IMG/VR virus record: IMGVR_UViG_3300025635_000031
Coordinates: 1 to 52,737 of that record
Length of the DNA stretch: 52,737 bases
Strand: one strand, 5' to 3'
Source: a virus
Lineage: Duplodnaviria; Caudoviricetes
Positions 6,129-47,318 of this stretch are shown piece after piece (the first letter of the stretch is position 1; the number at the start of each line of letters is the position of its first letter). Below the pieces are notes generated by a model. It did no database searches and was not told where the DNA came from. It saw only the letters and a program-made list of their open reading frames with translations. The translations under genes were made by a program, and so were the position numbers.

Positions 6129-6341
6129 ATGCAGCGCGTGCTTTGTAATGCCTTTGTTGATCCTGTGATCCTGCCTGAAAAGAACCACCCCGGCACGTTC
6201 CGCGTGGAGGTTTGGGGGCGGTCACCATACGATTACACGCGGTTCTACAAAATAGACGCGAAAGATGATAATATCGCCGCACAAGAGGGCATCCGTCTAT
6301 TTGTTGAAGAGATGGAGAAGCTTTTCGGATCAAAGGATTGA
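6129..6341 (+). CDS. hypothetical protein
   Basis: ORF between the HNH gene and portal, overlapping the portal start. Confidence 0.55.
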   Translation: MQRVLCNAFVDPVILPEKNHPGTFRVEVWGRSPYDYTRFYKIDAKDDNIAAQEGIRLFVEEMEKLFGSKD

Positions 6342-8635
6342 CTATGCCAACACCGGGCCTTGTTCCACAAAACCTTCGCCTTCTTGGCGCGGAAGAGCCG
6401 TCAATTGCTGATACGGGCGATGTGCAAGTAGAGATCGAAGAAGGCAAGCCCGGTTATGAAACTGACGATAGCGGCAATATCTTACGCATTGAACATCCTG
6501 ATGGCTCTGTCAGTATTTCTCTTGATGGTAAGCCTATAACAGAGAAGTCAGAAGCAGAGCGCGCCAGAACATGGTTTGCGAACCTTGTCGAAGATATCGA
6601 TGAAGGCGAACTGCAGCGTGTCGCTGACGAACTGATGAAAGGCATTCAGGACGATATCGACAGCCGCAAGGAATGGATCGAAGACCGTGCGCAGGGCATT
6701 AAGCTGCTTGGTCTTAAGATTGAAATCCCCGGCCTTGCAGGCGCGTCTGACGGCGCTCCTGTCGAAGGCATGTCCAAGGTTCGCCATCCGCTTTTGCTGG
6801 AGGCCTGCCTGCGCTTTCAGGCCAATGCACGTTCAGAGCTGTTGCCCACTGATGGCCCGGTCAAGATCCGCAACGATGCTGTTGGCACCACGGTAGAGCA
6901 TGACTTCACAGCCACAGCGTTGGAGAAGGATCTAAACCATTACCTGACCAGCGTAGCCACAGAGTATTACCCAGACACTGACCGCATGCTGTTGATGCTG
7001 GGTTTTGGCGGCACAGCGTTTAAGAAGGTTTACTTCTGCCCGCTACGTAATCGCCCTGTTAGCGAAAGCGTTGATGCTGATGACTTGATCGTCAATAACG
7101 CAGCTACTGATCTTTCGACTGCAAAGCGAATCACGCATCGCGTTTACATGCGTCCATCGACGGTAAAACGTCTGCAGATCTTGGGCGTGTATCGTGATGT
7201 TGATTTGGGTGTGCCTAAGACGCCTGATTTGGATTCAGTGCAACGCGCACAGAATGATCAGCAAGGCATCGCGCCAGAGACATACAACCCTGAAGACCGC
7301 GACCGTGAAATCTATGAATGCTATTGCGAATTGGATATCGCAGGGTTTGAACACAAATACAAAGGCAAAGAATCGGGACTAGAGATCCCGTACCGCGTCA
7401 CCATCGACGTATCGACAAAAGAAATTCTGTCGATTGTGCGCAATTACGACGAAGATACGGCAGAGTTGCCCGAAGCGCGGCAAAACTTTGTCAAATATTC
7501 GTTTGTTCCCGGCATGGGCTTTTACGACATTGGCTTGTTGCATATACTTGGCAACACAACCAACGCGGTGACAGCTGCATGGCGCGAAATGCTAGACGCA
7601 GGGATGTACGCAAACTTCCCCGGCTTCCTAATGGCAGAAACAGGCGCGCGCCAAAACACAAACATCTTCCGAATTCCACCGGGTGGTGGGCAAGTGGTGA
7701 AGACAGGCGGCATGCCGATCAATCAGGCGGTTATGGCTCTGCCATACAAGGACCCGTCTTCAGCCCTGATGACACTTGTTGAAAACATGGCACAGACGGG
7801 TATGCGGGTAGGCGGCACCAGCGAAATGCAGGTTGGTGAAGGCCGCGCAGACGCGCCAGTGGGGACCACACTGGCCATGATTGATCAGGCCACCAAGGTC
7901 CTGAATAGCGTCCACAAGCGCATGCATTCGGCACAGGCTGATGAATTCAAGCTTCTAGTACGTACCTTCCGGGAAAACCCGGAGAGCTTCTGGAACCGCC
8001 TGAAGCGGCCTACAACCGAATGGAACGAACAGACATTCCTTGGCGCGCTAAACGACTGTGAATTGGTCCCACAGGCCGACCCCAATACTGCTAGCCAGAC
8101 CCAGCGCATGATGAAGATCATGGGCTTGAAGCAGCTTCAGCAAGCTAACCCATCGATGTACGATCCAATCGCCATCGATACGGCTGCTTTGAAGGCTATG
8201 GGCTGGAGCAATCCAGAACAGTTCTTGGCACCGAAGGATGCACAGGCTGCACCGCCGCCAGAACTGCAACAGATCCAAGCCAAGATCCAGACGGATCAAC
8301 AGAAGGCACAGGCCGCTCTTATGTCTGCCCAGATCAAGGGTCAGGAAGTGCAGCAACGCGGCCAGATAGACATGATGAAGGCGCAGGCAGACGCTATGCG
8401 CGCACAGGCCGACATTCACTTTGCGCAGCAAGAGATCCACGAAAAGAAAAAAGATCGCTTGTCGCGTGAACGTGTGCAGATGATTGATCTTGCGCAGAAC
8501 CTTGCTGTGCATCCAGAAAGTGTGGGGGTAGTAGAGCCTCTCTTAGTTCCGGCCATGGAGGACATGGAACGTGAACAGAGAGAACAACAAATGCAGCAGG
8601 GTGGTATTATGCCTCCCGGTATGGGAGGTCAGTAA
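6338..8635 (+). CDS. portal protein (P22-like)
   Basis: 765 aa after terL; HPLLLEA, GTAFKKVYF, GFYDIGL and PVGTTLA motifs; Gln-rich coiled-coil tail. Confidence 0.85.
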   Translation: MTMPTPGLVPQNLRLLGAEEPSIADTGDVQVEIEEGKPGYETDDSGNILRIEHPDGSVSISLDGKPITEKSEAERARTWFANLVEDIDEGELQRVADELMKGIQDDIDSRKEWIEDRAQGIKLLGLKIEIPGLAGASDGAPVEGMSKVRHPLLLEACLRFQANARSELLPTDGPVKIRNDAVGTTVEHDFTATALEKDLNHYLTSVATEYYPDTDRMLLMLGFGGTAFKKVYFCPLRNRPVSESVDADDLIVNNAATDLSTAKRITHRVYMRPSTVKRLQILGVYRDVDLGVPKTPDLDSVQRAQNDQQGIAPETYNPEDRDREIYECYCELDIAGFEHKYKGKESGLEIPYRVTIDVSTKEILSIVRNYDEDTAELPEARQNFVKYSFVPGMGFYDIGLLHILGNTTNAVTAAWREMLDAGMYANFPGFLMAETGARQNTNIFRIPPGGGQVVKTGGMPINQAVMALPYKDPSSALMTLVENMAQTGMRVGGTSEMQVGEGRADAPVGTTLAMIDQATKVLNSVHKRMHSAQADEFKLLVRTFRENPESFWNRLKRPTTEWNEQTFLGALNDCELVPQADPNTASQTQRMMKIMGLKQLQQANPSMYDPIAIDTAALKAMGWSNPEQFLAPKDAQAAPPPELQQIQAKIQTDQQKAQAALMSAQIKGQEVQQRGQIDMMKAQADAMRAQADIHFAQQEIHEKKKDRLSRERVQMIDLAQNLAVHPESVGVVEPLLVPAMEDMEREQREQQMQQGGIMPPGMGGQ

Positions 8636-10014
8636 TGGCTAGCGCAAAAGGATTTGGAGTTAAAGGGGCTGCAGCTGGTGCAGAGCGTGGTGCATCAAAA
8701 AGCATTCTAAATGAAGAGCTTCAAAGCACATTAGATTTGCTTAAGTCTACTCTGGCAAAAGATGCAGAGCGAATTGCAGCTGGTCAAAAGCCGTTTTTCA
8801 AAAGCCCAGAAGAAGCCGCCGCATATTGGGATAAAGCTTATAAAGAAATTTCAACTGGGGTTACTAAAGGTATTTACCCAATTGGCCCCAACGCGCCACG
8901 CATTACATACAAAAAAGATGGCCAACTTTTTACGCTTAATCGTGACGTAAAGCCGCCTGAAGGTGCAGAGCGCGTTAGCCTTACGAATGCTGATATTCTT
9001 AAGATGATGCCGCCCCGTCCGCAAGTTACACCAAAGCCTGCCGGGGAACCGAACGCTTATAACAACCCACCGCCGCCTGAATACACATCCCGTGTAGCAT
9101 CATCGCCATCTACACAGGAAGCTGTGCAAATTGCAAAAGAAACGACAGCTGCTCCTAGCGCTGAAAGATTATCGCCACGATTAACACCAACATCACCTTG
9201 GGAGAAACCCGGCTTTACACCGCGTGTCAGCCCAACCACGCCAGAAGCAATTACACCACGGGTTCGTGATCTGGTAGATCCAGCATTAGTTCTTGGCGCG
9301 GGGGGTGCTGGTGCTTATGCTCTTGACCCAAATGCAGCCAAAACAATGGCGCAAAATATTCTTCAAACGCAATATCAAACACGCGCTGGAGATAGCAGCC
9401 CCAATCACGACATGATGCCTTATATGGGATCTGGCGTATCTGAACAGCCGGATGATTTTCGTGATAGCGGCATTCCGTTTAAGCAGCCAGTTGGCGTATC
9501 GTATGACTACAGCGATTTTGCGCCAAATGGCGGCATGAATGACGGGTCAATGACACCGCCAACGCCGGATCAATCTGGCCGTGAACTTGGGCCTTTTCCA
9601 GAGCGTCAGATGGGTCAGGAGCAACGTTTCCGCCCAGCATCATATGAAGGGCAGGCCCAGCGCTTTCCGCCAATGGGTGCCGTTTCTACAGCGCGCCAAG
9701 TTATTCAGCGCGCACAGAATAGCCCTACAGCACAAGCGCAACAGGCTGCAGCTGTTATGCAGCAAAGCCCAAATGAACTGACAGTGCAAAGAAGCGCTGA
9801 TCAGGGTCCTAATGCTTTGACCCGGTTTATTCGTGGTGATTTCCGCGAAGGTGCCGATCAGCGCGTTATGGAGGCTATGCGCCGCCAGCGTGAAGAAAGC
9901 GGTGTAGATAGTTCTACTATGGCGCGTGGTGGTGCTGCACCGAAAAAGTCAAACAAGGACGATGTGCTGCATAAAGCGCTTGAAATCATTCATCACATGC
10001 TTACACGGCGCTAA
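8635..10014 (+). CDS. low-complexity putative internal virion protein with C-terminal MARGG...VLHKAL tag
   Basis: 459 aa, Pro/Gln-rich, coupled to portal, one hydrophobic segment. Confidence 0.6.
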   Translation: MASAKGFGVKGAAAGAERGASKSILNEELQSTLDLLKSTLAKDAERIAAGQKPFFKSPEEAAAYWDKAYKEISTGVTKGIYPIGPNAPRITYKKDGQLFTLNRDVKPPEGAERVSLTNADILKMMPPRPQVTPKPAGEPNAYNNPPPPEYTSRVASSPSTQEAVQIAKETTAAPSAERLSPRLTPTSPWEKPGFTPRVSPTTPEAITPRVRDLVDPALVLGAGGAGAYALDPNAAKTMAQNILQTQYQTRAGDSSPNHDMMPYMGSGVSEQPDDFRDSGIPFKQPVGVSYDYSDFAPNGGMNDGSMTPPTPDQSGRELGPFPERQMGQEQRFRPASYEGQAQRFPPMGAVSTARQVIQRAQNSPTAQAQQAAAVMQQSPNELTVQRSADQGPNALTRFIRGDFREGADQRVMEAMRRQREESGVDSSTMARGGAAPKKSNKDDVLHKALEIIHHMLTRR

Positions 10015-10017
10015 ACA

Positions 10018-13000
10018 ATGGCTGATGATAAAGACAAATCCGTCTGGCAACATGCCCAAGATGCCTTAAATTGGATTGGCAACACAAAAGACCGGATGCG
10101 TCAGCAATCATTAGACTATCTAGTTGATCAAGGCATGGATGTTAATGATGCCTTGCGTGCGGCCAATAGTGTAGGCCGCAAAGTAGACCGGACTAATCTG
10201 ATTTCACAGGTTGTGGCTGGCGGATTATCACGGCCAGTAGCAGCGGCACAAATGGTTGGCATGGGCCAAGACATTGGCGAAAGCCTTATGGGCGCTGGTG
10301 AAGAGCTTGGTTCAGCTGTTCAAGGGCGCGCCAAGGGCGGACGTTTGCTGCAAGACCAATACCCAACGCATTACATGCCGCATGTAGGAAGACAAGTTAT
10401 GCAAGATGGTGGCGATCCAAAGGATGTAGTAAACAAAGCTCTTGCTTTAACGTCTGGCGCGCAGCCATCAGCGCAAACTGTTGCTAATCTTGTTAAGCGC
10501 GGCCAGCCAATTGCACCACCAACTGCAGATCCTACAGATGAAGAGCTTGCAGCCGCCCGTGCTGATACGCGCGTAGGCAATCAAATTGTTGCGCAGCGAT
10601 TGAATAAGATCGTTCCTGAAAGCAAACGTGTTTACAAAGGGCAGTATACGCCCGGCGCACCGGGTGGCGGTCGCTGGTCAGACCTTGGAGACGAAGTTCT
10701 TAGCCGTCCGGGTGCTGGATTTAACGTTAAAGACAAAGAATTACAGCAACTTTGGGATGAAGCTGTTAATGAAAGTTCTGCCGCAGCGAAGAAAGCGGCT
10801 AAAGATTTTAACGTTCGCCCTACATTTCATGCAAAAGATTGGGATCAGGCTATGCGCCTGCCCTTAAAAGATCATCTCTGGTACGAATTGTCGGGCGAAA
10901 AAATGGCTGAAAACCTTCCAGACCTGTCTGGACAGGAATTCATGCGCATGATGGATTTGGTTGGTGCCACTTCTGCCCGTGCAGCACCCGATGAAAACCT
11001 TGAACGTGCGCTTGCAGCTATGTCGCAGCACCTTCGTGGCGCGCCAATTGACGTTGATTTGACCCAACCTGACACTGTTAACCGCGCTATTTCGCGAATG
11101 GGGCAGGAATCATCTGCTCTTCCGGGTAATAAAACAGGACAATTTTCTGATACGCTTACATTAGCAGGCGGCGTGCCTACACGTTTTCCAATTTCGGTGA
11201 ATGATGTGTGGGTTGGTAAGATGTTTGGCGTTCCTGACAAGGTAATGTCATCTAATCAGTCGCTTCATGAACCAATGGCGATCTATTTCAACAAATTGCG
11301 TGACATGTACAACGAAAGACATGGTCACGAAGTGCCATTTGACTATCAATCATGGAATTTTCAGGCTCCTGCGTGGGTTCATTTGCGAAATAAAGAAGCA
11401 AATGCAGAATCTGGTGATGCATATCATCAGGTTTGGGGCAAAATTATTGGAAAATTGCAAAATGCTGGTGTTGAAGGCATCGATGGCGATAAAATTACGC
11501 GCCAAGCAATGATGGACCCACGTTTTGCTGATGCTTTGCGTCGTACAACGCAAGAATTCCGCGAAGCACCAAAGGCTACGGTCGAACTTGGCACCAAATT
11601 GACGCCAACAGGCCTTCGTGCGCATGAATTGTACAAGCAGGCCATTGCTGCAGGCGATGATAAGACACAAAAAGACTATGAAAAGGCTCTTGTCACGGCC
11701 ATGTACGCCTCTGCACGCGGTAAGGGGCATGGCTGGGAGCTTTTGAAGAAAGCTATCACTGGCGATCTGTCGAATAAATCAGATATCACCCGCATTGTGC
11801 AGCCTACAGCCGATGATCCATTTACCCATGGCGGAACATATGAAAATGAAATGTCGCCAAATATTAGAATTCCGCTTAAAGGAATGACGCCGCAGCAAAT
11901 TCAATATTTCAATGCTATTGCAGGTAAACATCTGAACCAAGGCGCAATGGCTGCGTCACAGGTTTTGCCTGTAGACCCAAATCAGGTTCCAAGGGATGGA
12001 TATGTGCGCGGGCACAGTGTTTTTGTGCCGACAACTGACGGTATGAAAAAGGAAGATATCCGCAAATTTGCAAGCGAAATCAATCGCTTGGGGCATAGCA
12101 TGAGTTACACAAGCTATCCTAACGGGTATGTTTTCGATATTAACCCGCAATTTACCGATGATGGCGTTAAGGGGATCGACCACAATACGCTTGCAGATGC
12201 CTATGACGTTACGCTAGCACCTAAGTATGGCAAGCCTGCATTATTCGCCCATGACTACAAATCGGAATATCAAACACAGCCAGAGTACGGGAAGCTTCGT
12301 ACAAAGCTTATGAAGGAGATGAACGATGACTTCATCAAAGAAGCCGTCCAAGCAGGCACACCAAAAGATTACGCACGGCGTATCGGTCAAGGGTCATCGT
12401 TACCCTCTGACGTCTCTAAAGGAACTGCAAAAGCTTGGGATCGGTACAGAGGGCGACTTTATCATCTCCTCTTTGCCGAAAAAGAATTCCAAGACCTAGC
12501 AAAGCGCGTTGAAGATGCGCATGGCGCGTTCATTCCTAAAGCAGAAGCACGTCTTGCAAAGCTTGCTAAATCACAAGCGCCCCAGACGCCTCCTGCCGCG
12601 CCAGAAGAGCCTACGCCAACAATGGCAGAAGGTGGCACTGTTCATGAACCGCACCAGCGCGCGGAAGAGCAGGGATATTCTATTAAGGGCTATCATGTGA
12701 CGCGCGGCCCACGCGCCAAAGGTATTAGCAGCTCTGGGCGGTTTTCTTTAGAACATGCAGAAAACCCCGGTGAAGAAGCGATATTTTTTTGGGATAACCC
12801 AGAAGCAGCAAATGACTGGGCGCATGCTTTAACGCAAACAACAACATTTAACCCCGACAAAATGACAGAACGGGATAAGGACAGGTTTGAACGTCACCAA
12901 ACTTCAATTCTTCCAGTTAGAATTAATCCCGGTAATCATGCAGAAGTTGATTGGCCATCCTTTGCTGGAACACATAGTTACAACACCGATGCAATGTCTA

Positions 13001-13200
13001 AATTAATTAGCCACGCCCAAGATCAAAACATAGACACGCTGCGAATTAAAAATATGCAGGAAGATGAATATAAAGAAAACCCACCTGACCAAATTGCGGT
13101 TTTAAATCCACGGTTGATCCGTTCGGAATACGCGAAGTTTGATCCTGCCCGCCAGCATGAAAATGACATTGGCGCGGCCACTGGTGGAGAGGTCAACTAA
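10018..13200 (+). CDS. polyvalent protein: central HhH-glycosylase-like domain plus C-terminal ADP-ribosyltransferase (ART-PolyVal-like) domain
   Basis: WYE..ATS..N..K.GQF..VNDVW..QAPAW pattern; C-terminal GYHVT..IFFWDNP..A..QIAVLNPRLIRSEYAKFDP pattern. Confidence 0.6.
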   Translation: MADDKDKSVWQHAQDALNWIGNTKDRMRQQSLDYLVDQGMDVNDALRAANSVGRKVDRTNLISQVVAGGLSRPVAAAQMVGMGQDIGESLMGAGEELGSAVQGRAKGGRLLQDQYPTHYMPHVGRQVMQDGGDPKDVVNKALALTSGAQPSAQTVANLVKRGQPIAPPTADPTDEELAAARADTRVGNQIVAQRLNKIVPESKRVYKGQYTPGAPGGGRWSDLGDEVLSRPGAGFNVKDKELQQLWDEAVNESSAAAKKAAKDFNVRPTFHAKDWDQAMRLPLKDHLWYELSGEKMAENLPDLSGQEFMRMMDLVGATSARAAPDENLERALAAMSQHLRGAPIDVDLTQPDTVNRAISRMGQESSALPGNKTGQFSDTLTLAGGVPTRFPISVNDVWVGKMFGVPDKVMSSNQSLHEPMAIYFNKLRDMYNERHGHEVPFDYQSWNFQAPAWVHLRNKEANAESGDAYHQVWGKIIGKLQNAGVEGIDGDKITRQAMMDPRFADALRRTTQEFREAPKATVELGTKLTPTGLRAHELYKQAIAAGDDKTQKDYEKALVTAMYASARGKGHGWELLKKAITGDLSNKSDITRIVQPTADDPFTHGGTYENEMSPNIRIPLKGMTPQQIQYFNAIAGKHLNQGAMAASQVLPVDPNQVPRDGYVRGHSVFVPTTDGMKKEDIRKFASEINRLGHSMSYTSYPNGYVFDINPQFTDDGVKGIDHNTLADAYDVTLAPKYGKPALFAHDYKSEYQTQPEYGKLRTKLMKEMNDDFIKEAVQAGTPKDYARRIGQGSSLPSDVSKGTAKAWDRYRGRLYHLLFAEKEFQDLAKRVEDAHGAFIPKAEARLAKLAKSQAPQTPPAAPEEPTPTMAEGGTVHEPHQRAEEQGYSIKGYHVTRGPRAKGISSSGRFSLEHAENPGEEAIFFWDNPEAANDWAHALTQTTTFNPDKMTERDKDRFERHQTSILPVRINPGNHAEVDWPSFAGTHSYNTDAMSKLISHAQDQNIDTLRIKNMQEDEYKENPPDQIAVLNPRLIRSEYAKFDPARQHENDIGAATGGEVN

Positions 13201-13317: not shown

Positions 13318-15222
13318 ATGTACGGTGAAGCTAAAAAGGCCCGCACGGCCATGAAGAACAAGGCCAAGCGCCTTGCTTCAGAGAAATCAGAGCGCGTTGA
13401 TTCGTCCACTTGGACGCAGGCAGAACCGCTTGATGCTGATGTAAAGACTGGCATGCGCCCTGTGTCGCGTCGTGCTTATCGCAGTGGCGGCAAGGTTCAG
13501 GGTGAAGTCACAAAGAAGCATGCTGGCAAGAAGGCCCGCGCTTCTGGTGGCGCGGCTAATGCCAAGCAGATCGCTCTGGCCAAGGTCAACCGTAACGTTA
13601 AAGATGCCAACGAAGAGCGCGAAGGCAAGAAGCACATTGGTGGCCTGAAGACAGGTGGCCGCGCCAAAAAGAAGATTGGCGGCGCTGCAGCCGATATCCT
13701 TGGTGTTCTTAGCCCTGTCGTTATGGCCGCAAACATGATGCGCGGCGACAAGGACGAAAAGAAACACGGTGGGCGCACCAAGCGTGAATATGGCGGTCGT
13801 GGTGTTGGGGAACGCACCCAACACGAATTGAAGCGCCGTGACGCTGTTCAGGCTGCGACGGACTACGGTGAAGATCCGCGCGTGACCGAAAGCGTTTTGC
13901 GCGACAAGACCCGTGCCTTTGAAAAGTCAGCCGAACAGACAGCTTATAAGAAGGGTGGCCGTACCAAAAAGATGGACGGTGGCCCTATGGGTGATCCGCG
14001 TCTTAATATTGCTAAGTCGCAGGCTTTTGATCTTACAAACACACGCGGCGCACCGGGTACGGTTGTTGCCAAGCGCGGTGGCAAGATCTCCCACATGGAA
14101 TGGGAGCATTCCAAGAAAGATCTTTCTGAAGATAAGAAGCTTGCCAAAAAGCACGGCATGTCTTTGGAAAAGTGGGAAAAGTCGAAGCTTGATGAAAAGC
14201 ACGACAAACAACAGTCAACCAAGGGCCTTAAGCGCGGCGGTCGTGCTAAAGGCGGCGCTACTAAATACCTTGGTGCTGGTTATGGTTCAAAAGACGAAAA
14301 AGAAGCTGAAAAAGAATACGGCAAAAGAGAACCTGCTCTTGATCGCGCTTTGAACCAGATGGAAGGCACTTTTAGCCCGTGGGCTATGCGCAAGTCGCGT
14401 GCAGAAATTGCAGAGCGCCGCGCCGGGGCGAAGGATGGCCCTGAAAAGCGTGCAGCTGCAAAAAAATACAGCGATGATGCAAGCCTGAAGGATGCTGGTT
14501 ATAAGCATGGTGGACGCCCTAAGCGCGCCACTGGCGGCATGATCAATGAAACCAAGAAGCTTGCCGCTCTTAAGGCTGATCCGCACAACCAAACTAAGAT
14601 CAAGCCTGCTATGCCAGCACCAAAAGAGCCTGCCGCTGAAAAATGCGGCGGTGGCCGTATGGCACGCAAGGCTGGTGGTCGCGCCAAGGGCAAGACCAAC
14701 ATCAACATTGTGATTGCAACTGGCAAAGGCCAGCCGGGTCAGGATGGTATGCCTCCGGGCATGCCTCCAATGCCTCCGGGCGGCCCTATGGGTGGCCCGC
14801 CGCGTCCTCCGGGTGGTGTGCCTGTTCCAATGCCAGCTGGCGGTCCTCCTGCGGCCCCGCAGGCGATGCCTATCCCAATGCCGATGCCTGCTCCCCAACA
14901 GCCCCCTATGGCGCGTAAGTCTGGCGGACGCATTACAAAGGTAGCCAAGTCCTATAAGGACATGGAAGCTGGTGCAGGATCTGGTGAAGGCCGTTTGCAG
15001 AAAACGGACATCGCCAAGCGTGATCGCAAAGACGAATACCAGAAGGGTGAAAAAGCTTTCACTGGCCTTGGTTATCCTAACAAGGTTCCGGGTGCCACAG
15101 GTGGGCGCACGGCACGCAAGGCTGGCGGCAAGGCATACCATTCTTACAAGGACATGGATGCGGGCGCTGGTTCGGGCGAAGGTCGTTTGGAAAAGACAGA
15201 AATCGCCAAGCGCAAAAAATAA
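13318..15222 (+). CDS. highly basic xxxGG-repeat protein (putative internal head protein or peptide polyprotein)
   Basis: 634 aa, Lys/Arg/Gly-rich, 19 xxxGG motifs, Pro-rich tract, duplicated C-terminal 24-aa unit; AGGAG RBS. Confidence 0.75.
14950..15213 (+). repeat. 72-nt imperfect direct repeat (14950..15021 and 15142..15213) encoding SYKDM(E/D)[10 protein letters not shown](Q/E)KT(D/E)IAKR
   Basis: visible in both protein and DNA. Confidence 0.9.
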
Positions 15223-15313: not shown

Positions 15314-15523
15314 GTGTTATCTTCACAAGCGTTCTTCCGCAATGAACTGATTAAGCTTCTTGCCGAAGACATAGAGCGAATTAAAGAAAATTTAACAAAT
15401 TGGGGTGCGACCCCTGACTTTCCTACTTACACACACCAAGTAGGGAAGATTGATGGCTTGCGCATGGCTTTAGAGCTGATTGAACAAGCTGAAAGTGCAA
15501 TGAATGGAGTGGAGAGGGGATAA
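15314..15523 (+). CDS. hypothetical head-module protein
   Basis: 69 aa with Y...VG.IDGL motif, upstream of the GroES-like gene. Confidence 0.65.
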   Translation: MLSSQAFFRNELIKLLAEDIERIKENLTNWGATPDFPTYTHQVGKIDGLRMALELIEQAESAMNGVERG

Positions 15524-15915
15524 TGCCATTTATGAAGATGGATCACGAAAATGATCCGCGCGCCAAGATCGTCAACGAAGTTGGTGATTTGTCGCAATTA
15601 GAATTGTTTAACAATCAGATTTTGGTTGGTGTCTACATCAGGCCGCAAAAAACCAAATCTGGTATTTATTTGGCTGATCGTACTGTCGATGAAGATCGTC
15701 ATCAGTCGAAGGTTGGTCTTCTCCTTAAAACAGGTCCAAAGGCGTTTGAACCAAACAATGATGGATGGTTTGAAGGCGAAACCTTCAATGAAGGTGATTG
15801 GCTTGTTTATCGCCCTGCAGACGGGTGGAGCATCACCGTTAATAATGTCCTTTGCCGCATCCTAATGGATACGCAGGTTAAGGGACGCATCCAAGATCCA
15901 GATCAGGTTTGGTAA
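15523..15915 (+). CDS. groES: phage co-chaperonin, GroES/Cpn10-like
   Basis: mobile-loop KTKSGIYL, then VGLLLKTGP, GDWLVY and RILMD. Confidence 0.8.
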   Translation: MPFMKMDHENDPRAKIVNEVGDLSQLELFNNQILVGVYIRPQKTKSGIYLADRTVDEDRHQSKVGLLLKTGPKAFEPNNDGWFEGETFNEGDWLVYRPADGWSITVNNVLCRILMDTQVKGRIQDPDQVW

Positions 15916-16827: not shown

Positions 16828-17424
16828 ATGGAAAATAAGCCAATCCGCAAGCGTGGCCGTCCGCCGAAGCTGTTTGAAGCGCCTAAAATGGTAGAAGTGG
16901 AAGAAATCGTGGTCGAAACACCAATTGAACGTCCAGCTATGCGTGCTGAAATGCGTGAAGAAAGCCCTGCAGAGCGCGCCAAGCGACGTGCTGCCGAAAT
17001 TCGTGGCCATTTGAACGGCATTGATGAAGGAACAGATGAATTTTACATCGATCCTTCGATGATCCCGGATGGTTGGTCATATGAATGGAAGCGCCGCCTG
17101 CTTCTTGGCGCGGAAGATCCGTCCCACAACGTTGCTCTGTATCGTATGGGTTGGGAACCAGTGCCGCTTACACGCCATCCTGAAATGATGCCCCGTGATT
17201 GGCGCGGTGAAACAATCGAACGCAAAGGCATGATCCTTATGGAGCGTCCTTTGGAGTTGGTTGAAGAAGCACGCGCAATTGAACGTCGCAAGGCAGTCAA
17301 TCAGGTTCGTGATAAAGAAGCGCAGATTGCTGGCACGCCAGACGGAACGCTTACGCGCGATCACGCACAGGCGCGTCCTTCGATCAAAAAGGGATACGAA
17401 CCAATCCCGATCCCGAAAGACTGA
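16828..17424 (+). CDS. conserved head-module hypothetical protein
   Basis: PDGWSYEWKR..GWEPV..GMILMERP motifs; AGGAGG RBS. Confidence 0.7.
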   Translation: MENKPIRKRGRPPKLFEAPKMVEVEEIVVETPIERPAMRAEMREESPAERAKRRAAEIRGHLNGIDEGTDEFYIDPSMIPDGWSYEWKRRLLLGAEDPSHNVALYRMGWEPVPLTRHPEMMPRDWRGETIERKGMILMERPLELVEEARAIERRKAVNQVRDKEAQIAGTPDGTLTRDHAQARPSIKKGYEPIPIPKD

Positions 17425-18203: not shown

Positions 18204-19115
18204 ATGGCCGTTAATCTTTCCGCCATTAAAGACCTTCTCCTTCCCGGTCTACGTGGAATTGAAGGCAAATACGAACAGATCCCGTCACAGTACGACAAGA
18301 TCTTCACGAAGCACGAATCGAAAATGGCCCTTGAACGCACGGCTGACATGCGTTTCCTTGGCCTTGCGCAGCTGAAGACCGAAGGTGGTCAGACTGCATT
18401 CGATAACGCAGCTGGTGAACGTTTTGTGTACAATCAGGAGCATACTGAAATTGCTCTTGGTTACGCGATCACCCGTAAGGCTATCGACGATAACCTCTAC
18501 AAGACCCAGTTCATGCCGTCGAACCTTGGTCTGATTGAATCATTTCAACAGACAAAGGAAATCTATGGCGCGAACGTGCTGAACTCTGCCACGACCTACA
18601 ATGCGTCGATTGGTGGTGACGGCAAGGCTCTCTGCGCTGTGGACCACCCGATTGATGGTGGCACGATTGCGAACCGTCCTCTGGTTGATGTTGAACTTAA
18701 CGAAGCTACGTTGCTGAACGCGATGATCGCGATCCGTACTAACTTCAAAGACAACGCTGGCCTGAAGATCTTCGCCCGTGGCCGTAAGTTGGTTATCCCG
18801 CCGCAGCTTGAACCAGTTGCTATCCGTCTTACTAAGACGGAACTTCGTCCGGGTACTGCAGACAACGATGTCAACGCGATCATGATGACCGCTGGTGGTC
18901 TTCCTGAAGGCTACATCGTCAACGACTACCTGACAGCAGCTGCTACATGGTTCCTGCTTACAAACATTGACGGCCTCTCCTACATGGAGCGCGTCAAGTT
19001 TGAATCGGATATGCAGGTCGACTTCGTAACAGACAACCTGTTGGTGAAGGGCTACGAACGTTATTCGTTCGGCTACTACAACTGGCGTTCGATCTACGGA
19101 TCGTTCCCGACCTAA
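18204..19115 (+). CDS. major capsid protein (Mu gpT-like, HK97 fold)
   Basis: LLPGL, ALGYAIT..AI.DNLY, GDGKAL...HP, KLVIPP.L, WFL.T, ERYSFG motifs; strongly biased codon usage. Confidence 0.88.
   Translation: MAVNLSAIKDLLLPGLRGIEGKYEQIPSQYDKIFTKHESKMALERTADMRFLGLAQLKTEGGQTAFDNAAGERFVYNQEHTEIALGYAITRKAIDDNLYKTQFMPSNLGLIESFQQTKEIYGANVLNSATTYNASIGGDGKALCAVDHPIDGGTIANRPLVDVELNEATLLNAMIAIRTNFKDNAGLKIFARGRKLVIPPQLEPVAIRLTKTELRPGTADNDVNAIMMTAGGLPEGYIVNDYLTAAATWFLLTNIDGLSYMERVKFESDMQVDFVTDNLLVKGYERYSFGYYNWRSIYGSFPT

Positions 19116-22650: not shown

Positions 22651-22658
<8 letters not shown>
21930..22658 (+). CDS. virion-associated protein with N-terminal CxxC...CxxC and an inserted beta module
   Basis: ICDRCGF...VCESCLD.PQ; GDGTTAT...GYNGTF.V module. 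Confidence 0.65.
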
Positions 22659-24804
<2,146 letters not shown>

Positions 24805-31141: not shown

Positions 31142-31159
31142 CACTTGTTGGAGGGGGAA

Positions 31160-32776
31160 ATGCCTTTTAGTTCTGAAAGCGGTAAGGCCGCTATCAAATG
31201 GGTAGTATCTAAACTACCAAAGACAGACCGTATGTTGGACATCGGCGCAGGGTGTGGAACCTATGCCAAAATGTTCAAAGCACAGCATTGGACTGGTGTA
31301 GAGGTTTGGGAGCCATATGTTGAAAAGTATGGCCTGAAAGACCTATACAATACACTTCTTGTCCAAGATGCCACAGAGATAAATTTTACTGAACATTATG
31401 ATGTAGCATTTGCTGGTGATGTACTAGAACACATGTCATCAGAAGAGGCGGTCAAGCTTGTTAAAAAGCTAAAGAAATGCGCTGATACTGTCATCATTAG
31501 CATCCCTATTGGTCATTACCCGCAAGGACCGTATGAAGACAATCCATACGAAATCCACATAGTTGATAATTGGACACACGATGCTTTTGTTGAAGCCTTT
31601 GGCGCGCCAACATTCTGGCGGATTGACAATGAAATTGGCATCTACGTTTATAGCAAGTTTGCTATAAAGCTAAACATCGCTGTGTATGCTATAAGCAAGA
31701 ATGAAGAGCAGTTCGTAGAACGGTTCGCAAAGGCTTGCAAAGATGCCGACCTTATCATGGTGGCCGACACGGGAAGTACAGACGGAACTGTGGAAGCCTG
31801 TCAGCGCCATGGCATTACCGTTCACAATATATGCATCACACCTTGGAGATTTGACCACGCCCGTAACGCGGCTGTGGCTCTCCTCCCTAGAAATATTGAT
31901 GTATGCATCAGCCTTGACTTGGATGAACTATTGGAACCCGGATGGCGCAAAGAGATAGAGCGTGTCTGGAAGCCCGGTGAAACAACCCGCCTGCAATATC
32001 TATTCGATTGGGGCCACGGGATTAGGTTCGCCTATCAAAAAATCCATGCGCGCCATGGGTATTTCTGGCACCACCCGTGTCATGAGTACCCTGTATATGA
32101 CAAGCGAATCACAGAAGTCTGGGCATATACCGATATGCTCTTGGTTAGCCATCATCCTGACCCGACCAAAAGCCGCGGGCAATACCTAGATCTTCTGGAA
32201 CTATCGATTAAGGAAGACCCGCGCTGCCCGCGTAATGCTTTCTATTATGCCCGCGAATTGACGTTCTACAGTAAGTGGAATGAAGCCATTAAGGCCCTGC
32301 ATCGTTATTTAGAGATGCCAGAGGCTGTATGGCCCAATGAACGCTGCTATGCCATGCGCTTATTGGGTAAGGCCTATGACCATGTTGGGAACGGATATGA
32401 AGCCGTTGCATGGTATCGCAGGGCCTGCGCAGAGGCTCCCAATACGCGCGAACCATGGTGTGATTTAGCTATGTGGCTTTATCGCAGACAGGAATGGGCG
32501 GAATGCTTTGGCGCGTCTATGAAGGCTTTATCAATCAAAGATAAGCAGCTGGTCTATACGTGCGATCCTACTGTCTGGGGGTACTGGGCGCATGATTTGG
32601 CCAGCATTTCTGCATGGCAGCTAGGCCTTCATGATGTTGCCCTAGAACAGGCGCAATTAGCGCTTCAGCATGAACCAGAAGACCTTCGATTGAAGGCTAA
32701 TTTAGAGTATATTCAGCGCCACATTTCAGGAGAGGGGGAAGGTGGTATGGGCGATGGATTACCAGACGCTGTTTAA
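31160..32776 (+). CDS. class I SAM methyltransferase - GT2 glycosyltransferase - TPR fusion
   Basis: LDIGAGCG and GDVLEH; YAISKNEE, DTGSTDGT, FDHARN, SLDLDE; TPR-like helices. Confidence 0.85.
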   Translation: MPFSSESGKAAIKWVVSKLPKTDRMLDIGAGCGTYAKMFKAQHWTGVEVWEPYVEKYGLKDLYNTLLVQDATEINFTEHYDVAFAGDVLEHMSSEEAVKLVKKLKKCADTVIISIPIGHYPQGPYEDNPYEIHIVDNWTHDAFVEAFGAPTFWRIDNEIGIYVYSKFAIKLNIAVYAISKNEEQFVERFAKACKDADLIMVADTGSTDGTVEACQRHGITVHNICITPWRFDHARNAAVALLPRNIDVCISLDLDELLEPGWRKEIERVWKPGETTRLQYLFDWGHGIRFAYQKIHARHGYFWHHPCHEYPVYDKRITEVWAYTDMLLVSHHPDPTKSRGQYLDLLELSIKEDPRCPRNAFYYARELTFYSKWNEAIKALHRYLEMPEAVWPNERCYAMRLLGKAYDHVGNGYEAVAWYRRACAEAPNTREPWCDLAMWLYRRQEWAECFGASMKALSIKDKQLVYTCDPTVWGYWAHDLASISAWQLGLHDVALEQAQLALQHEPEDLRLKANLEYIQRHISGEGEGGMGDGLPDAV

Positions 32777-34863: not shown

Positions 34864-37398
34864 ATGCCACACGCATCACTTAAGCTAGTTCCGGGTGTAG
34901 ACCAAAACAAAACGCCCGCTTTGAATGAAGCTGCAATTTCTTCCACAAACCTTGTCCGTTTTGTTCCTGATCGAAATGGTTTAGGCCTTGTTCAAAAGCT
35001 TGGCGGATGGACACGGTTCTACAGTAGCCCCATGACATCTAAAGTAAGGTGCTTGTGGGCGTGGCAAACGCTTAATGACATCAGCTACCTTGGTGTTGGG
35101 GCGGAAGAGAGCCTTAACACAATTAGTGAAGGTTCTCTTAGGACAATTACGCCACAATATTATGTTGTAAATCCACCAGTTGATTTTTCGACAACTGCTG
35201 GAAGTGCCGTTGTAACTATTACAGATACCAATAGTAATATTGATAACTACGATGCTGTATGGATTAGCACACAAGTTACTATTGGCGGCTTACGCTTACA
35301 GGGCCTTTATCAATGCTCTTCGCTAAGTTCCGGCACGTATTCAATTGTTGCCAGAGATGTTCTTGGATACGAACAACAGGCTACATCAACCGTTTCTAAC
35401 AGCGGCAACATACCGTCTTTTACAACGGCATCAGGATCGGCACAGGTCACTGTAGATTTTACGGATCATTTATATTCAGAAGGTGATACGTTTACACTTT
35501 TAGTCCCAATTGACATTGGTGGCATTTCCCTTTTTGGAAATTACGTTATTGCGGATGTAACGACAGCTAATCAGTTTATTATTAATGCAAGTAATACGGC
35601 CTCTTCAACCCAAACACTTGCGCTAAATAACGGTCTTGCCCGTTTTACATATTATAATGGTGTTGGCCCTTTACCTGCCGGTTCTGGATATGGGATTGGT
35701 GGATATGGAGAAAACGGATACGGAACGGGTATCCCGCCAACGGCATTTAGACAAATGGTTACAATTGGTGCTAAAGGCGATGGCACAACGGCAACAATTA
35801 GCCATAGCACAAATACAAAACTATCCGCAGGCACAACATTAACAGTTTCCGGTGTTACGCCAGCGGGGTATAACACGGGCGCGCCAGTCGCAATTACAGG
35901 ATCTACTTCAAACTTATTTTACGTAACTAACGTTGTTGGAAGTGGGTCAACTGTAACAGTTACACATAGCGGAAGTTCTGCAATTGAAGTTGGAACTGTC
36001 TTTACATTGTCGGGGGTAAACCCTGCTGCATATAACGGCACTTGGACAGTTACTAATTCAACAACAACAACAGTTGAGTTTTCATCCGCTACAACAACAG
36101 CTTATGTGTCTGGTGGTCTGGTTGCGTCAAATACTATTTCATACCTTAATGCGACAACGGGCGCACAAACTGTTGCTGGCCTTATTACCCTTAATCAAAT
36201 TCCGACCCTAACATGCACTGATTGGACGTTGGATAATTGGGGCGAATTCCTGATTTCTTGCCCCAATAACGTTAGCACTGATCCCGGCCAGCCAGATGAT
36301 TATCTTACAGGCGGTGGGATATATTATTATCAGCCAGATGCTGGGACGCCTGTTGCTACAATCATCCCAACAGCGCCACCAGTTAATCGTGGTATGTTTG
36401 TCTCTATGCCGCAACGCCAAATTGTTGCTTGGGGATCAACGTTTAATGGAATTATTGACCCACTTTTAATTCGCTGGACAGATGTTGGCGATTTTAATGT
36501 TTGGGCTGGAACTGTAACTAATCAAGCAGGTTCATATAGAATTCCAAAAGGTTCAAAGGTTGTCGGATGCATTCAAGGCCCGCAACAAGGCCTTGTTTGG
36601 ACGGATCTTGCTATATGGGCCATGCAGTACATTGGGCCTCCCTACGTTTATTCGTTTAACGAAATTGGAACTGGTTGCGGACTAATAGCGCCAAAAGCTT
36701 CAACTTCCATGAACGGCGTGGTTTATTGGATGTCGCAATCGCAATTCTTCCGCCTTGCTGGTGGCGGCGTAGAGCCAATACCTTGCCCAATTTGGGATGT
36801 TATCTTCCAAGATCTTGACACAAATAATCTTGATAAGATCCGTATCGCTCCAAATTCCCGCTTTGGAGAAGTAACTTGGTACTATCCAACTGTTGGTAAT
36901 GGCGGTGAAGTTAGTCATTACGCAAAATACAACGTTTACATGAACCAGTGGGACTTCGGCGCGATTGGTAGAACAGCGTGGATTAACCAATCCGTGTTTG
37001 GCCCTCCAATTGGCGCGACACCTGATAACATTATTGTGCAGCATGAAACATCAACCGATGCTGACGGTCAGGCTATGAACTCTTTCTTCCAGACCGGCTA
37101 TTTCCAGTTAAATGATGGTGATGTGCTAACCTTTGTTGACCAATTCTGGCCAGATGCAAAGTGGGGTTATTATGGCGGGGTACAGAACGCAAACCTACTT
37201 TTGACATTTTATGTGACACAATATGCCGGTGACACACCTATTGCGTATGGGCCGTTCACTTTGACTGAAGCAACAGAATATGTGACACCACGGCTTCGTG
37301 GTCGTTTAGTAAGTATAAAGATTGAAAGCAATGATGTTGGAACTTTTTGGCGTCTTGGAAACATGCGTTATCGCTGGCAGCCGGATGGGAAATTCTAA
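34864..37398 (+). CDS. tail nozzle / tail tubular protein B-like (DNA stabilisation protein)
   Basis: 844 aa; QKLGGW, W.LDNWGE, DPLLIRW.D, TNQAG, RLRGR motifs. Confidence 0.7.
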   Translation: MPHASLKLVPGVDQNKTPALNEAAISSTNLVRFVPDRNGLGLVQKLGGWTRFYSSPMTSKVRCLWAWQTLNDISYLGVGAEESLNTISEGSLRTITPQYYVVNPPVDFSTTAGSAVVTITDTNSNIDNYDAVWISTQVTIGGLRLQGLYQCSSLSSGTYSIVARDVLGYEQQATSTVSNSGNIPSFTTASGSAQVTVDFTDHLYSEGDTFTLLVPIDIGGISLFGNYVIADVTTANQFIINASNTASSTQTLALNNGLARFTYYNGVGPLPAGSGYGIGGYGENGYGTGIPPTAFRQMVTIGAKGDGTTATISHSTNTKLSAGTTLTVSGVTPAGYNTGAPVAITGSTSNLFYVTNVVGSGSTVTVTHSGSSAIEVGTVFTLSGVNPAAYNGTWTVTNSTTTTVEFSSATTTAYVSGGLVASNTISYLNATTGAQTVAGLITLNQIPTLTCTDWTLDNWGEFLISCPNNVSTDPGQPDDYLTGGGIYYYQPDAGTPVATIIPTAPPVNRGMFVSMPQRQIVAWGSTFNGIIDPLLIRWTDVGDFNVWAGTVTNQAGSYRIPKGSKVVGCIQGPQQGLVWTDLAIWAMQYIGPPYVYSFNEIGTGCGLIAPKASTSMNGVVYWMSQSQFFRLAGGGVEPIPCPIWDVIFQDLDTNNLDKIRIAPNSRFGEVTWYYPTVGNGGEVSHYAKYNVYMNQWDFGAIGRTAWINQSVFGPPIGATPDNIIVQHETSTDADGQAMNSFFQTGYFQLNDGDVLTFVDQFWPDAKWGYYGGVQNANLLLTFYVTQYAGDTPIAYGPFTLTEATEYVTPRLRGRLVSIKIESNDVGTFWRLGNMRYRWQPDGKF

Positions 37399-37754
37399 TG
37401 GCTAGTTTAGATGACATCTTAACAACACAGAAAAACGGCGTTGTTGCTATTAATGCGCTGAACAACATTACGCTTGGTTCGGCAGGTACTGTCACTTCCG
37501 CTACAGTTACATCAACAACTCTTGTATTTGTTGGGGCTGGTCGCCTTGTAAATGTTTCCGTTGTGGTCAATGGATCAGCAGACGGATTTATTCATAATGC
37601 GTCTACGACAGGCGGCATTACGGCATCAAATGCTTTGTGCGCTACGCCATCTGCAGCTGTTGGTGTCTATCCTTGCGGACAAGTGTTTACCAATGGTCTT
37701 GTGATCGATCCGGGTGCCGGACAGTCAATCAATGTAACGTATTCAAGCGGGTGA
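37398..37754 (+). CDS. virion structural protein
   Basis: coupled ORF, beta-rich C-terminus. Confidence 0.6.
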   Translation: MASLDDILTTQKNGVVAINALNNITLGSAGTVTSATVTSTTLVFVGAGRLVNVSVVVNGSADGFIHNASTTGGITASNALCATPSAAVGVYPCGQVFTNGLVIDPGAGQSINVTYSSG

Positions 37755-37757
37755 TCT

Positions 37758-38723
37758 ATGCCTCTTAAAAAGGGTTCTTCACAGAAGACCGTATCGACAA
37801 ACATCCGCGAACTTGTTCATTCGGGTAAGCCGCAAAAACAAGCGGTTGCTATTGCTCTTGATGTGGCGCGTCGGTCCAATAAAGCCGTAGGTGGGGAACT
37901 AACGCCTGTTGTCAATCCAACCGTTTACAATGCACAGTTGCTTTCAACCCTTTCTGGCAAGCCTGTAGCGGCAGGCGATGGGAAGTCAGAAAAAGCACCT
38001 GATGGTGAAGCACAGGCAGGCACAACCGCATCACCAATCATGCAAAAAATGGCTGAAAATTTGGGCGGCGGTGGTGGTGGTGGGGACGGGGGCGGCGGCG
38101 GTTCCAATTTTGGAGGGTCCGATGCCAGTGGCACAGCCGGTGGCGTCAATGGCTCTGATTATGGCGGCGGTTCTGGTAATAACCCCGGCAGCGAAGGCGG
38201 CTCTCCTGCAACCCTTGCAGAAGGCGGCGCAGCGCCCTTCTTTGGCGGTGGAACGGGCACTACTACCAAGGTCCACGTAGGGCCCATCCACAGCCCCGTA
38301 GCAGGCCGTACAGACCATCTGCCTATGCATGTTCCTTCAGGGTCCTATGTGATCCCTGCCGATATCATTTCGGCCATGGGGGAAGGCAATACGATGGCTG
38401 GGTTTAAGGTGGCCAATACAATCTTTAGCCGTATCCCCGGAATGACTGGCGCGCCCGGTATGCAGGCTATCCCGACGAAGGGTAGCACACCCGGTATGGA
38501 TGCCGAATTAGGCATCCCCGGCAAAGCAAGGGGTGGCACTATTGAAGATGCTGTACCCATCGTTGCGGCTGGTGGGGAGTATGTAATTTCGCCGGGCGAT
38601 GTTCGTCGTATTGGCGAAGGAGACTTAGACAGGGGGCATCAGGAGCTTGATCTATTTGTTAAGGCGATGCGCGCCAAGACAATCAAGACCCTGCAAAAGC
38701 TCCCCGGTCCAAAGCGTGATTAA
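37758..38723 (+). CDS. protein with three xxxGG motifs and two 'P...G(S/E)YVI' domains
   Basis: MPLKKG.S..T.S.NI.E N-terminus; GRTDHLP..VPSGSYVIPAD and VPIVAAGGEYVISP. Confidence 0.7.
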   Translation: MPLKKGSSQKTVSTNIRELVHSGKPQKQAVAIALDVARRSNKAVGGELTPVVNPTVYNAQLLSTLSGKPVAAGDGKSEKAPDGEAQAGTTASPIMQKMAENLGGGGGGGDGGGGGSNFGGSDASGTAGGVNGSDYGGGSGNNPGSEGGSPATLAEGGAAPFFGGGTGTTTKVHVGPIHSPVAGRTDHLPMHVPSGSYVIPADIISAMGEGNTMAGFKVANTIFSRIPGMTGAPGMQAIPTKGSTPGMDAELGIPGKARGGTIEDAVPIVAAGGEYVISPGDVRRIGEGDLDRGHQELDLFVKAMRAKTIKTLQKLPGPKRD

Positions 38724-38737
38724 CGAAGGGGGACTAC

Positions 38738-39220: not shown

Positions 39221-39226
39221 AAATTA

Positions 39227-47143: not shown

Positions 47144-47318
47144 TGATATTAGTCTGGGCACGGATTTCTTTATTATTCCATGTCCAGCATTCGCCATTGT
47201 CCTGAAAGCAGACCCACAAAAGATCATGCTCTGGCCCATAGTCAATTAAGACATGGGCCAAAGCTTTTCCTTTAGGCGTTTCGATAGGCAGGGCGGGGTT
47301 TAGCTGTAAGAGGTACAT
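47112..47318 (-). CDS. conserved phage hypothetical protein
   Basis: QLNP..P..TPKG...IDYG.EH.L.WV...GECWTW motif. Confidence 0.7.
   Translation of the reverse strand: MYLLQLNPALPIETPKGKALAHVLIDYGPEHDLLWVCFQDNGECWTWNNKEIRAQTNITMGRLSPPKP

Follow-up and report, generated by a model that had tools for sequence, protein, structure and literature searches.

A phage head-region protein whose predicted mini-domains are gained, lost and replaced at a conserved double-glycine junction

What is the function of a gene that lies among the head genes of a phage, and whose product looks like a row of unrelated pieces set off from one another by the same short motif? The question is raised by virus record IMGVR_UViG_3300025635_000031 (Duplodnaviria; Caudoviricetes; 92% complete), the whole of which, 52,737 nucleotides, is the window analysed here. 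One open reading frame (ORF) of the window, between the portal and scaffold-like genes, encodes a 634 amino acid (aa) protein of 67.8 kDa and isoelectric point (pI) 10.2, with 139 K+R, 73 D+E and 88 Gly residues; we call it the modular protein. An earlier note, made from the letters of the window alone, had described it as an array of paired double glycines (GG) exactly 8 residues apart that flank unrelated peptides, and had suggested that such cassettes might be exchanged at the delimiters of a precursor of small peptides. We find that close relatives do differ by whole units exchanged at these junctions. The reading of the protein that we favour, at what we judge to be an even chance of being right, is that it is a beads-on-a-string, mini-domain relative of the polyvalent virion-cargo proteins, and that the string stays uncut.

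A script run on the translation finds six GG-x6-GG doublets, which start exactly where the earlier note had placed them, at 13645, 13759, 13945, 14500, 14641 and 15091 (these coordinates count three residues upstream of the first GG; the doublets themselves are at residues 113, 151, 213, 398, 445 and 595), and the compressed 10-aa doublet at 14227 is present as well. Shuffles that preserve the composition of the protein contain 0.21 doublets on average and 5 at most, and six or more were seen in 0/20,000 of them; the tripeptide GGR occurs 10 times in the modular protein, a count that was likewise matched in 0/20,000 shuffles. The hydrophobic helix, the WEHSK unit and the Pro-rich tract that had been mentioned are all found, and the proposed spacer length of 25-90 aa holds for all but one of the segments (28, 52, 84, 84, 37, 140 and 30 aa), the exception being the long Pro-rich C-terminal stretch. 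Since the codons vary among the delimiters (GGT GGC, GGT GGG or GGC GGT for the GG pairs, CGC or CGT, and AAA or AAG), it is the protein motif that is conserved, and the DNA itself does not repeat. The net charge of the protein is about +66; the junctions contribute +2 to +4 each, and all segments are neutral or positive.

The spacing is a property of the family. The most frequent distance between successive GG pairs in the first 120 homologues is 8 (502 cases), followed by 227 cases at 1 (GGG runs), 139 at 5 and 120 at 20. A logo of 559 doublets reads [K61%/A22%]-x-G-G-R(89%)-[T/A]-[K/A]-[K/R 85%]-x-x-G-G, in which the G columns stand at 100% because the search pattern requires them. At 11% of the 559 sites the residue after the second GG is Pro, and these sites include the most conserved junction, KKMDGG-P. 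An AlphaFold2 model made from a 41-sequence alignment has a mean predicted local distance difference test score (pLDDT) of 47 and a predicted template modelling score (pTM) of 0.18; it places helices at residues 2-21 (pLDDT 82) and otherwise within the units only (124-141, 168-208, 266-296, 325-392 and 408-427), and 7/7 junctions are coil with pLDDT <50. The predicted picture is one of helical mini-domains that are beads on a disordered string. The N-terminal part has its own invariant columns in the 41 sequences (T44, G45, R47, P48, S50 and R52; N91, R92, K95, A97 and N98).

Comparison of close relatives bears out the suggested gain, loss and exchange of cassettes at the delimiters: proteins whose ends are 95-98% identical to those of the modular protein lack, gain or replace whole units, with the breaks in the GG motifs, and the homologues are clearly not colinear without turnover. 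The clearest case is P0012, in which the N-terminal part is 97%, S2 98% and the C-terminal part 96% identical to the window protein; S1 has been lost from it by in-register fusion of the junctions, and an unrelated unit (20% identity) stands in place of S4. The ends of P0013 are 98% and 96% identical, and its S2 and S4 only 21% and 28%. P0002 is 95-98% identical throughout except in S4 (63%) and has one inserted unit, and in P0005 and P0010 only S2 has been replaced. Identity in S2 is 13-27% in P0005, P0010, P0013-P0015, P0018 and P0019 and 3% in P0016, all of which have N-terminal parts that are 75-98% identical. S1 is missing in 6/14 aligned close relatives (P0009 and P0012-P0016); P0009 and P0012 have a clean fusion of junctions 1 and 2 in its place, and P0013-P0016 have a different unit from junction 1 on. 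P0018 and P0019 carry a HSDEAMDKALIKKMVKP unit where the WEHS unit stands in the window protein, and P0002, P0015 and P0019 have one extra junction-flanked unit each. As near-identical relatives differ by whole units, these differences reflect recent exchange and not slow divergence.

The same behaviour is seen across the family. For 110 of 252 members, those with both anchors (NRNVKxAN and KTNINIVI), the middles were cut at the junctions and the resulting 487 segments clustered; this anchored cutting replaced a single-linkage clustering that had merged most segments through low-complexity matches. The segments fall into 101 clusters, 78 of them singletons, and the 110 full-length members have 81 architectures. 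One unit, which follows a junction with a 12-aa motif, is nearly universal and the remaining ones are optional (S1, for example, belongs to cluster B, which accounts for 25/487 segments). The relative order of units is mostly kept, so the process is one of insertion, deletion and replacement and not of free shuffling. A window-identity scan of the 14 close relatives gives 36 divergent or indel blocks, and 48/72 of their ends fall no more than 8 aa from a GG (44.6% expected). Among the 14 blocks of at least 30 aa, 23/28 ends are no more than 4 aa away (29.5% expected), though block ends are not independent counts, as several relatives share the same event.

How large is this family? At least 2,747 relatives have E≤1e-3 among the 8,000 candidates scored from a collection of 5.8 billion proteins, and in a library at 50% identity there are 1,085 representative clusters at E≤1e-3 and 289 at E≤1e-30, most of which align in 3-6 separate stretches. 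The constant features are KTGxRP (229/252), GxGRL[QE]K (244/252), a Pro-rich stretch (252/252) and a KTNINIVI-like segment (159/252), counted in a set of which many members are fragments from short contigs. The modular protein has no Pfam or PHROG match, and its matches in the protein atlas are to viral "hypothetical" clusters only. A Pfam scan of 81 members returned DUF6496 alone, in 1/81; the window protein falls below the cut-off of this family (PF20106), and all of the flagged homologues match it (6/6, E 9e-8 to 2e-12), which makes DUF6496 an optional unit within the family. An identification of the KWIQ/FIKDAIKKPG unit as "DUF3008" was considered and dropped, as no scan confirmed it. In the literature we found "DUF6496" in no paper, and no paper on GG-delimited phage proteins, this family or the junction; we thus found no earlier description of either family or junction.

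Several of the units exist as free-standing small phage genes, and for this reason we regard the units as autonomous. Residues 123-443 match 127 shorter proteins, many of which are complete small proteins on long phage contigs, and in the phage loci that we fetched 19 complete small ORFs have a match to a family unit with E<1e-6. As separate phage genes of 55-140 aa we find at least three unit types. The WEHS unit occurs in free-standing phage proteins of 55-99 aa, which typically have a conserved N-terminal stretch of about 30 aa ending in KKGG, then the unit, then LKRGG and 2-3 further residues. Among 44 small proteins of at most 150 aa, 27 end 2-3 residues past the last GG and 24 end in Cys. 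This terminal Cys (in P0266-P0353 and in L103, L104 and L110-L113) usually stands in LKRGG-K-A-C; other small unit proteins end in GDGxAx(R/K)GKT(K/R)GxxC, which resembles a 24-aa segment of the window protein. The FIKDAIKKPG...RARFAxxL unit is encoded by ORFs of 60-61 aa that lack any GG (L113:8220-8402 and five other loci), and there are also short proteins in which KKGG links two to four units (P0289, P0365 and P0324).

One of the free-standing units belongs to a cultured phage. Residues 264-326 of P0012 are 54% identical (E 9e-10) to the 88-aa gp44 of Pelagibacter phage HTVC027P, whose gene directly follows the portal gene and is the first of 11 small annotated genes that extend to GroES. 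These genes, gp44-gp54 (L003 14364-17135), encode proteins of 36-128 aa, of which one matches DUF6321, one weakly matches DUF5872, and gp47 carries the junction YKVGGRVSKMGGG; contig L113 has a similar small-gene array. The HTVC027P array and those of the L113 type thus occupy the same portal-to-GroES locus, with a homologous unit in gp44 and with K-K-G-G and GGRxxKxGG in gp44 and gp47. The units are separate genes there and are fused in one reading frame in the window, and gp44-gp54 looks like the unfused counterpart of the modular protein. We found no experimental study of such small-gene arrays in the literature, and the paper on CRP-901 contains no proteomics.

Two sequence matches hint, weakly, at a link between the mini-modules and proteins that carry a head or virion annotation. 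In P0324 the N-terminal module aligns with positions 1-42 of two PHROGs labelled "virion structural protein", and the N-terminal module of a 321-aa protein encoded further along the window is 40% identical over 82 aa (E 6e-5) to the N-terminus of Acinetobacter phage AP22 gp28, which is annotated "head maturation protease". In the 321-aa protein the phrog_2423 module ends in NKAVGG and is followed by a poly-Gly tract and a C-terminal domain; by eye the module resembles DUF6496. A phrog_2423-type N-terminal module also heads about 90 records related to AP22 gp28.

The junction is not confined to the family. In the fetched loci, 24 ORFs that lack the signature motifs of the family carry one strict junction, GG[RK]x5GG; 20 of them encode at least 500 aa, and most lie directly upstream of the modular gene. 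In these large proteins the junction reads GGR[IV]G[YF]xxGG, and it stands between conserved regions in 16/16 that were examined. Pfam matches were obtained for 7/12 of the large proteins scanned, to InPase, ART-PolyVal, LPD23, GP88 and PBECR5, and also to SLT and Hydrolase_2. InPase, ART-PolyVal, LPD23 and PBECR5 are in the polyvalent-protein set as the main text of Iyer et al. (2017, PMC5512222) presents it. In L069 the junction, at residue 313, comes directly before the ART-PolyVal domain (320-461). The corresponding 1060-aa protein of the window has no Pfam or PHROG match of its own, and the protein atlas offers DUF7178 for it as a candidate only (score 0.91, family on 52% of members). Its C-terminal domain, which follows PTMAEGG, aligns with residues 473-657 of the L069 protein, which follow PAKADGG (E 2e-12). 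The shared junction and the adjacent position make the modular gene the last member of a polyvalent-protein locus with one junction grammar.

The 1060-aa protein has in addition a 26-residue GG-bracketed element at aa 107-132, GG-R-LL(E/Q)D(Q/E)YPTxY(M/L)PxVGRQVMxxGG, with 14 invariant positions in 10 related loci (L011, L014, L021, L023, L030, L033, L036, L037, L041 and L047). It is found at residues 43 to 1331 of variable polyvalent proteins of 610-2472 aa, is covered by no Pfam family, and may be a packaging or processing signal. The 10-aa motif in the N-terminal part of the modular protein was considered as a version of this element; a profile comparison gave a probability of 0.3%, that is, no relation.

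How does the modular protein itself compare with the polyvalent proteins? Like those described by Iyer et al. (PMC5512222), it has many modules in one polypeptide, extreme architectural mosaicism and a place among late and head genes. Polyvalent proteins have 2-15 domains in variable architectures, and here there are 7 junction-bounded units and, as noted above, 81 architectures in 110 full-length members; the late or virion gene setting is present in its position after the portal gene and in the synteny of the relatives, where the modular gene adjoins genes for proteins with ART-PolyVal, InPase, LPD23 and PBECR5 that have the junction motif in common with it. The characteristic domain families (MuF, MPTase, ART-PolyVal, LPDs and nucleases) are absent from the 634-aa protein and present in the large neighbours of the relatives. 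Unlike polyvalent proteins, it is made of units of 30-90 aa that have no Pfam family (DUF6496 in some homologues apart), and it has no enzymatic domain, MuF or MPTase. This domain content sets it apart from the polyvalent proteins proper, as a mini-domain, junction-delimited form. The main text of Iyer et al. (2017) mentions no fixed Gly-bracketed junction motif and uses neither "glycine" nor "linker"; the supplementary domain catalogue was outside this check.

According to the reading that we favour, constant N-terminal and C-terminal parts frame a variable middle of autonomous mini-proteins of 30-90 aa with predicted helices, the C-terminal part being a GKTNINIVI strand, a Pro-rich rod and two copies of a conserved motif. 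The units are joined by a single conserved junction, predicted to be disordered and serving perhaps as a hinge or docking site, [K/A]-x-G-G-R-[T/A]-[K/A]-[K/R]-x-x-G-G. Since this one junction closes every unit, recombination within junctions would delete, insert or replace whole units in frame, and by such in-frame exchange related phages come to carry different sets of units. The modular protein may be loaded into the procapsid through its constant parts, may leave with the DNA, passing as a thin and flexible chain through portal and tail channel, and its units may then act in the infected cell; these steps are suggested by the position of the gene and by the precedent of the polyvalent proteins, and the genomic company of such proteins favours delivered cargo.

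Several observations weigh against this reading. The domains that define polyvalent proteins are, as we have seen, lacking from the modular protein. The ends of BLAST alignments are only 1.8-fold enriched at doublets (53/167 within 3 aa, against 17.8% expected), with another concentration of ends at the lone KRGG|K site (residues 254-255), and there is hypervariability inside units as well, in short stretches such as aa 234-250 and 368-390. A tblastn search with the modular protein against 50,697 phage records found only the uncultured MW202675.1 and no cultured phage, and longer fused forms were looked for and not found, a negative of little weight. Finally, the junction, with its invariant GG, R and K columns in 41 sequences, is more conserved than a plain hinge needs to be, so it probably has a specific partner or enzyme.

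That last point leads to the alternative that survives best, a true polyprotein, in which a phage or host protease would cut after GG (or GGR) in the procapsid or the cell and free the units together with 8-residue basic peptides; we think this a real possibility, though we lean away from it. GG pairs stand at every unit border, and their invariance fits an enzyme site. The unit borders fall within a few residues of the ends of the free-standing proteins: a 12-aa stretch of the window protein corresponds to M-SAMEWEHS in P0308, and GG|KAEKWIQGAIKKPG in P0012 corresponds to MKKNFIKDAIKKPG in L113:8220-8402. The small free-standing proteins keep K-x-G-G after their N-terminal stretch and mostly stop just beyond their last GG, and in the 1060-aa protein x-A-x-G-G marks every apparent domain border and GG+EVN forms the C-terminus. 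The argument in the main text of Iyer et al. (PMC5512222) that polyvalent proteins need processing into functional units also speaks for cleavage. The enzyme, on the other hand, was not found: MPTase-PolyVal, Peptidase_C39 (0/5 genomes), Peptidase_C48, S78, ClpP and S49 gave no match in this genome and four near-complete relatives (five for MPTase), with positive controls. For Peptidase_C48 the result was 0/5 genomes with a working control, the adenain and African swine fever virus (ASFV)-type protease families not having been searched; DUF2213 gave no match in the genomes searched, and its control genome was also silent. The motif argues against cleavage too. Arg follows the first GG at most of the 559 sites, K/R is fixed within the motif, and a spacing of exactly 8 residues suggests a single structural or binding unit, not a pair of independent sites. 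Pro, which follows the second GG at the sites counted above, is a residue before which many proteases fail to cut. The capsid system, with a 303-aa capsid protein and a separate scaffold-like protein, also appears to be of the protease-free type.

The polyprotein can be given a more specific form, which we put forward tentatively and regard as somewhat doubtful: that the junction is a dedicated processing signal at which an unrecognised protease cuts both the modular protein and the adjacent polyvalent proteins, so that the capsid delivers a recombining library of mini-proteins, in aquatic podophages with head genes related to those of HTVC027P. The nearest parallels would be adenovirus, with its adenain, and ASFV, with pp220/pp62 and pS273R, in which GG also stands at product borders within one chain; cleavage is hypothetical here. 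The adenain consensus is (M/I/L)XGG-X. Unlike these viruses, our genome and its relatives have no detected clan CE protease (Peptidase_C48), and the motif is a paired one of 10 residues with a fixed Arg after the first GG (for ASFV polyprotein processing see PMC10308890).

It is unlikely that the modular protein is simply an internal DNA-binding or condensing head protein, comparable to a histone H1 tail, whose basic junctions and Lys/Ala/Pro-rich stretches neutralise the packaged DNA. Its high pI and net charge, positive junctions, predicted disorder and place in the head gene block all agree with such a role. The junction in the large proteins (GGRIGYADGG and the like) is not basic, and charge is therefore not a conserved property of the motif; moreover, bulk charge neutralisation has no need of conserved, specific helical units with rapid turnover.

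We consider it equally improbable that the protein is not cargo at all and serves in assembly, as a disordered scaffold or chaperone that does not become part of the mature head, or is an ejection protein that spans the envelope by means of its hydrophobic helix and Pro-rich rod. The gene adjoins GroES-like and scaffold-like genes, the Pro-rich tract is universal in the family, and the hydrophobic S1 could insert into a membrane. S1 is however optional, a rapidly changing payload would be unusual for an assembly factor, and the window has separate genes for large virion structural and DNA-ejection proteins (PHROG annotation) at 34864-45627. The likeness to a RiPP (ribosomally synthesized and post-translationally modified peptide) or prohormone precursor of secreted or modified peptides, proposed in the earlier note, resides in the layout only (repeated delimiters with dibasic centres and GG pairs) and has very little chance of being right. 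The protein is 634 aa long, has constant ends and is encoded among the head-morphogenesis genes, after the portal gene and before the scaffold-like gene; neither the 31 window ORFs scanned nor four relatives yielded a modification enzyme, C39 peptidase or transporter; and the units are predicted helical mini-proteins conserved at 60-80% identity.

Delivery of proteins from the head has well-known examples. The internal proteins and peptides of T4 and the ejection proteins of P22 and T7 are carried inside the head and enter the host together with the DNA, being small or unfoldable enough to get through the channel; a head protease processes some of them (that of T4 cuts at L/I-x-E). They have no sequence relation to the modular protein and are not cassette arrays with a common junction.

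Coordinates of the features discussed are collected in Table 1.

Table 1. Features of the modular protein and of the surrounding genome, by position in the window.
Feature	Position	Strand	Evidence and remarks
Portal gene, left border of variable locus	6338-8635	+	phrog_1216, E 4e-31
459-aa low-complexity Pro/Ser/Thr/Gln-rich protein after portal	8635-10014	+	Ends MARGG, then short helix
1060-aa multi-domain protein upstream	10018-13200	+	GG element 10336-10413; C-terminal domain 12616-13179 right after MAEGG
Modular protein ORF	13318-15222	+	ATG start, 634 aa, single ORF; 100% match to P0001 in protein collection
Constant N-terminal part, aa 1-112	13318-13653	+	Predicted helix 2-21, then KTGxRPxSRR and NRNVKxAN
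Junction 1, 13 aa	13645-13683	+	Doublet scan; predicted coil, pLDDT <50
Unit S1, hydrophobic helix (19 aa) and acidic/basic tail, optional cassette	13684-13767	+	
Junction 2, 13 aa	13759-13797	+	Doublet scan
Unit S2, aa 161-212, predicted helical hairpin	13798-13953	+	Helices 168-185 and 191-208; replaced in relatives
Junction 3, 13 aa, most conserved junction in family	13945-13983	+	K211, G214, R215, K218, G221 and G222 invariant, 41 sequences
WEHS unit, aa 254-306, WEHSKKD...WEKS...KHDKQQS	14077-14235	+	Bounded by KRGG|K and LKRGG
Compressed junction 4, 10 aa	14227-14256	+	Doublet scan
Unit S4, aa 314-397, four predicted helices	14257-14508	+	Helices 325-392, pLDDT 65-77; swapped in P0012 and P0013
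Junction 5, 13 aa	14500-14538	+	Doublet scan
Unit S5, aa 408-444, cluster E	14539-14649	+	Ends in sole Cys of protein
Junction 6, 13 aa	14641-14679	+	Doublet scan
Constant 13-aa segment, then Pro-rich tract	14680-14913	+	K457, G458, K459, T460 and I464 invariant
Constant C-terminal part, two copies of 21-aa motif	14923-15219	+	Invariant columns 548-563
Junction 7, before second C-terminal motif copy	15091-15129	+	
69-aa ORF after modular gene	15314-15523	+	Conserved in relatives
GroES-like gene, right border of variable locus	15523-15915	+	Cpn10, E 1.9e-4; phrog_3188, E 9.5e-8
198-aa protein after scaffold-like gene, conserved	16828-17424	+	AT-hook-like RKRGRPPK start; DEFY..IPDGW.YEWK...ERKGMxLMERP core in all relatives inspected
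Capsid gene, 303-aa product	18204-19115		
Collagen-like tail-fibre protein	22651-24804	+	Many PHROG tail-fibre matches
Protein matching PHROG annotated beta-1,4-glycosyltransferase	31145-32776	+	E 8e-104
321-aa protein among genes with PHROG annotation virion structural or DNA-ejection	37758-38723	+	N-terminal 42-aa module matches phrog_2423, E 2e-19
GcrA-like regulator	47272-47769	-	E 4e-11
YqaJ exonuclease, ERF recombinase	51508-52134, 52134-52571	-	

The head region of the window is ordered small and large terminase, portal, 459-aa protein, 1060-aa protein, modular gene, 69-aa ORF, GroES-like, scaffold-like and capsid genes; tail fibres, an endolysin and the large virion structural or DNA-ejection proteins mentioned above follow the capsid gene. 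In 6/8 IMG/VR loci the modular gene is likewise followed by an ORF of 64-69 aa and then by GroES-like, scaffold-like and capsid genes, and the other 2/8 stop at a contig edge. The order portal, variable locus, GroES, scaffold, capsid is kept in MW202675.1, HTVC027P, CRP-901, Caulobacter phage RW and DSL-LC04. The portal protein is 68% identical to that of uncultured MW202675.1 and 27-35% identical to those of HTVC027P, HTVC023P, Roseobacter phages CRP-901 and CRP-902, Caulobacter phage RW and its relatives, and DSL-LC04. The GcrA-like regulator presumably indicates an alphaproteobacterial host. The phages that carry the units are related to abundant marine and freshwater groups, of the HTVC023P type (PMC10149686). 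The 459-aa protein has after its MARGG a tail, KKSNKDDVLHKALEIIHHML, that resembles both the HSDEAMDKALIKKMV unit of family members and DVVNKALAL, a stretch found after the GG element of the 1060-aa protein. We saw no DNA polymerase in the window.

If the reading of the modular protein as an uncut string of mini-domain cargo is right, it describes a very large family, of more than 1,000 clusters at 50% identity, that lacks annotation: neither the protein nor the majority of its units is covered by a Pfam or PHROG model. In this family phages would evolve the proteins they deliver by swapping whole mini-proteins at a standard junction. Should the junction turn out to be cut by an unrecognised protease, which is possible but in our view rather doubtful, the system would be a phage counterpart of the GG-X processing of adenovirus and ASFV core proteins, with plug-and-play evolution of injected effectors. 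For the biology of polyvalent proteins the family provides a defined junction motif that can be mutated, that predicts domain borders and that can serve as bait for a partner or a protease. The catalogue of units (WEHS, FIKDAIKKPG, DUF6496 and dozens of singletons) is one of candidate injected effectors or modules of the head interior.

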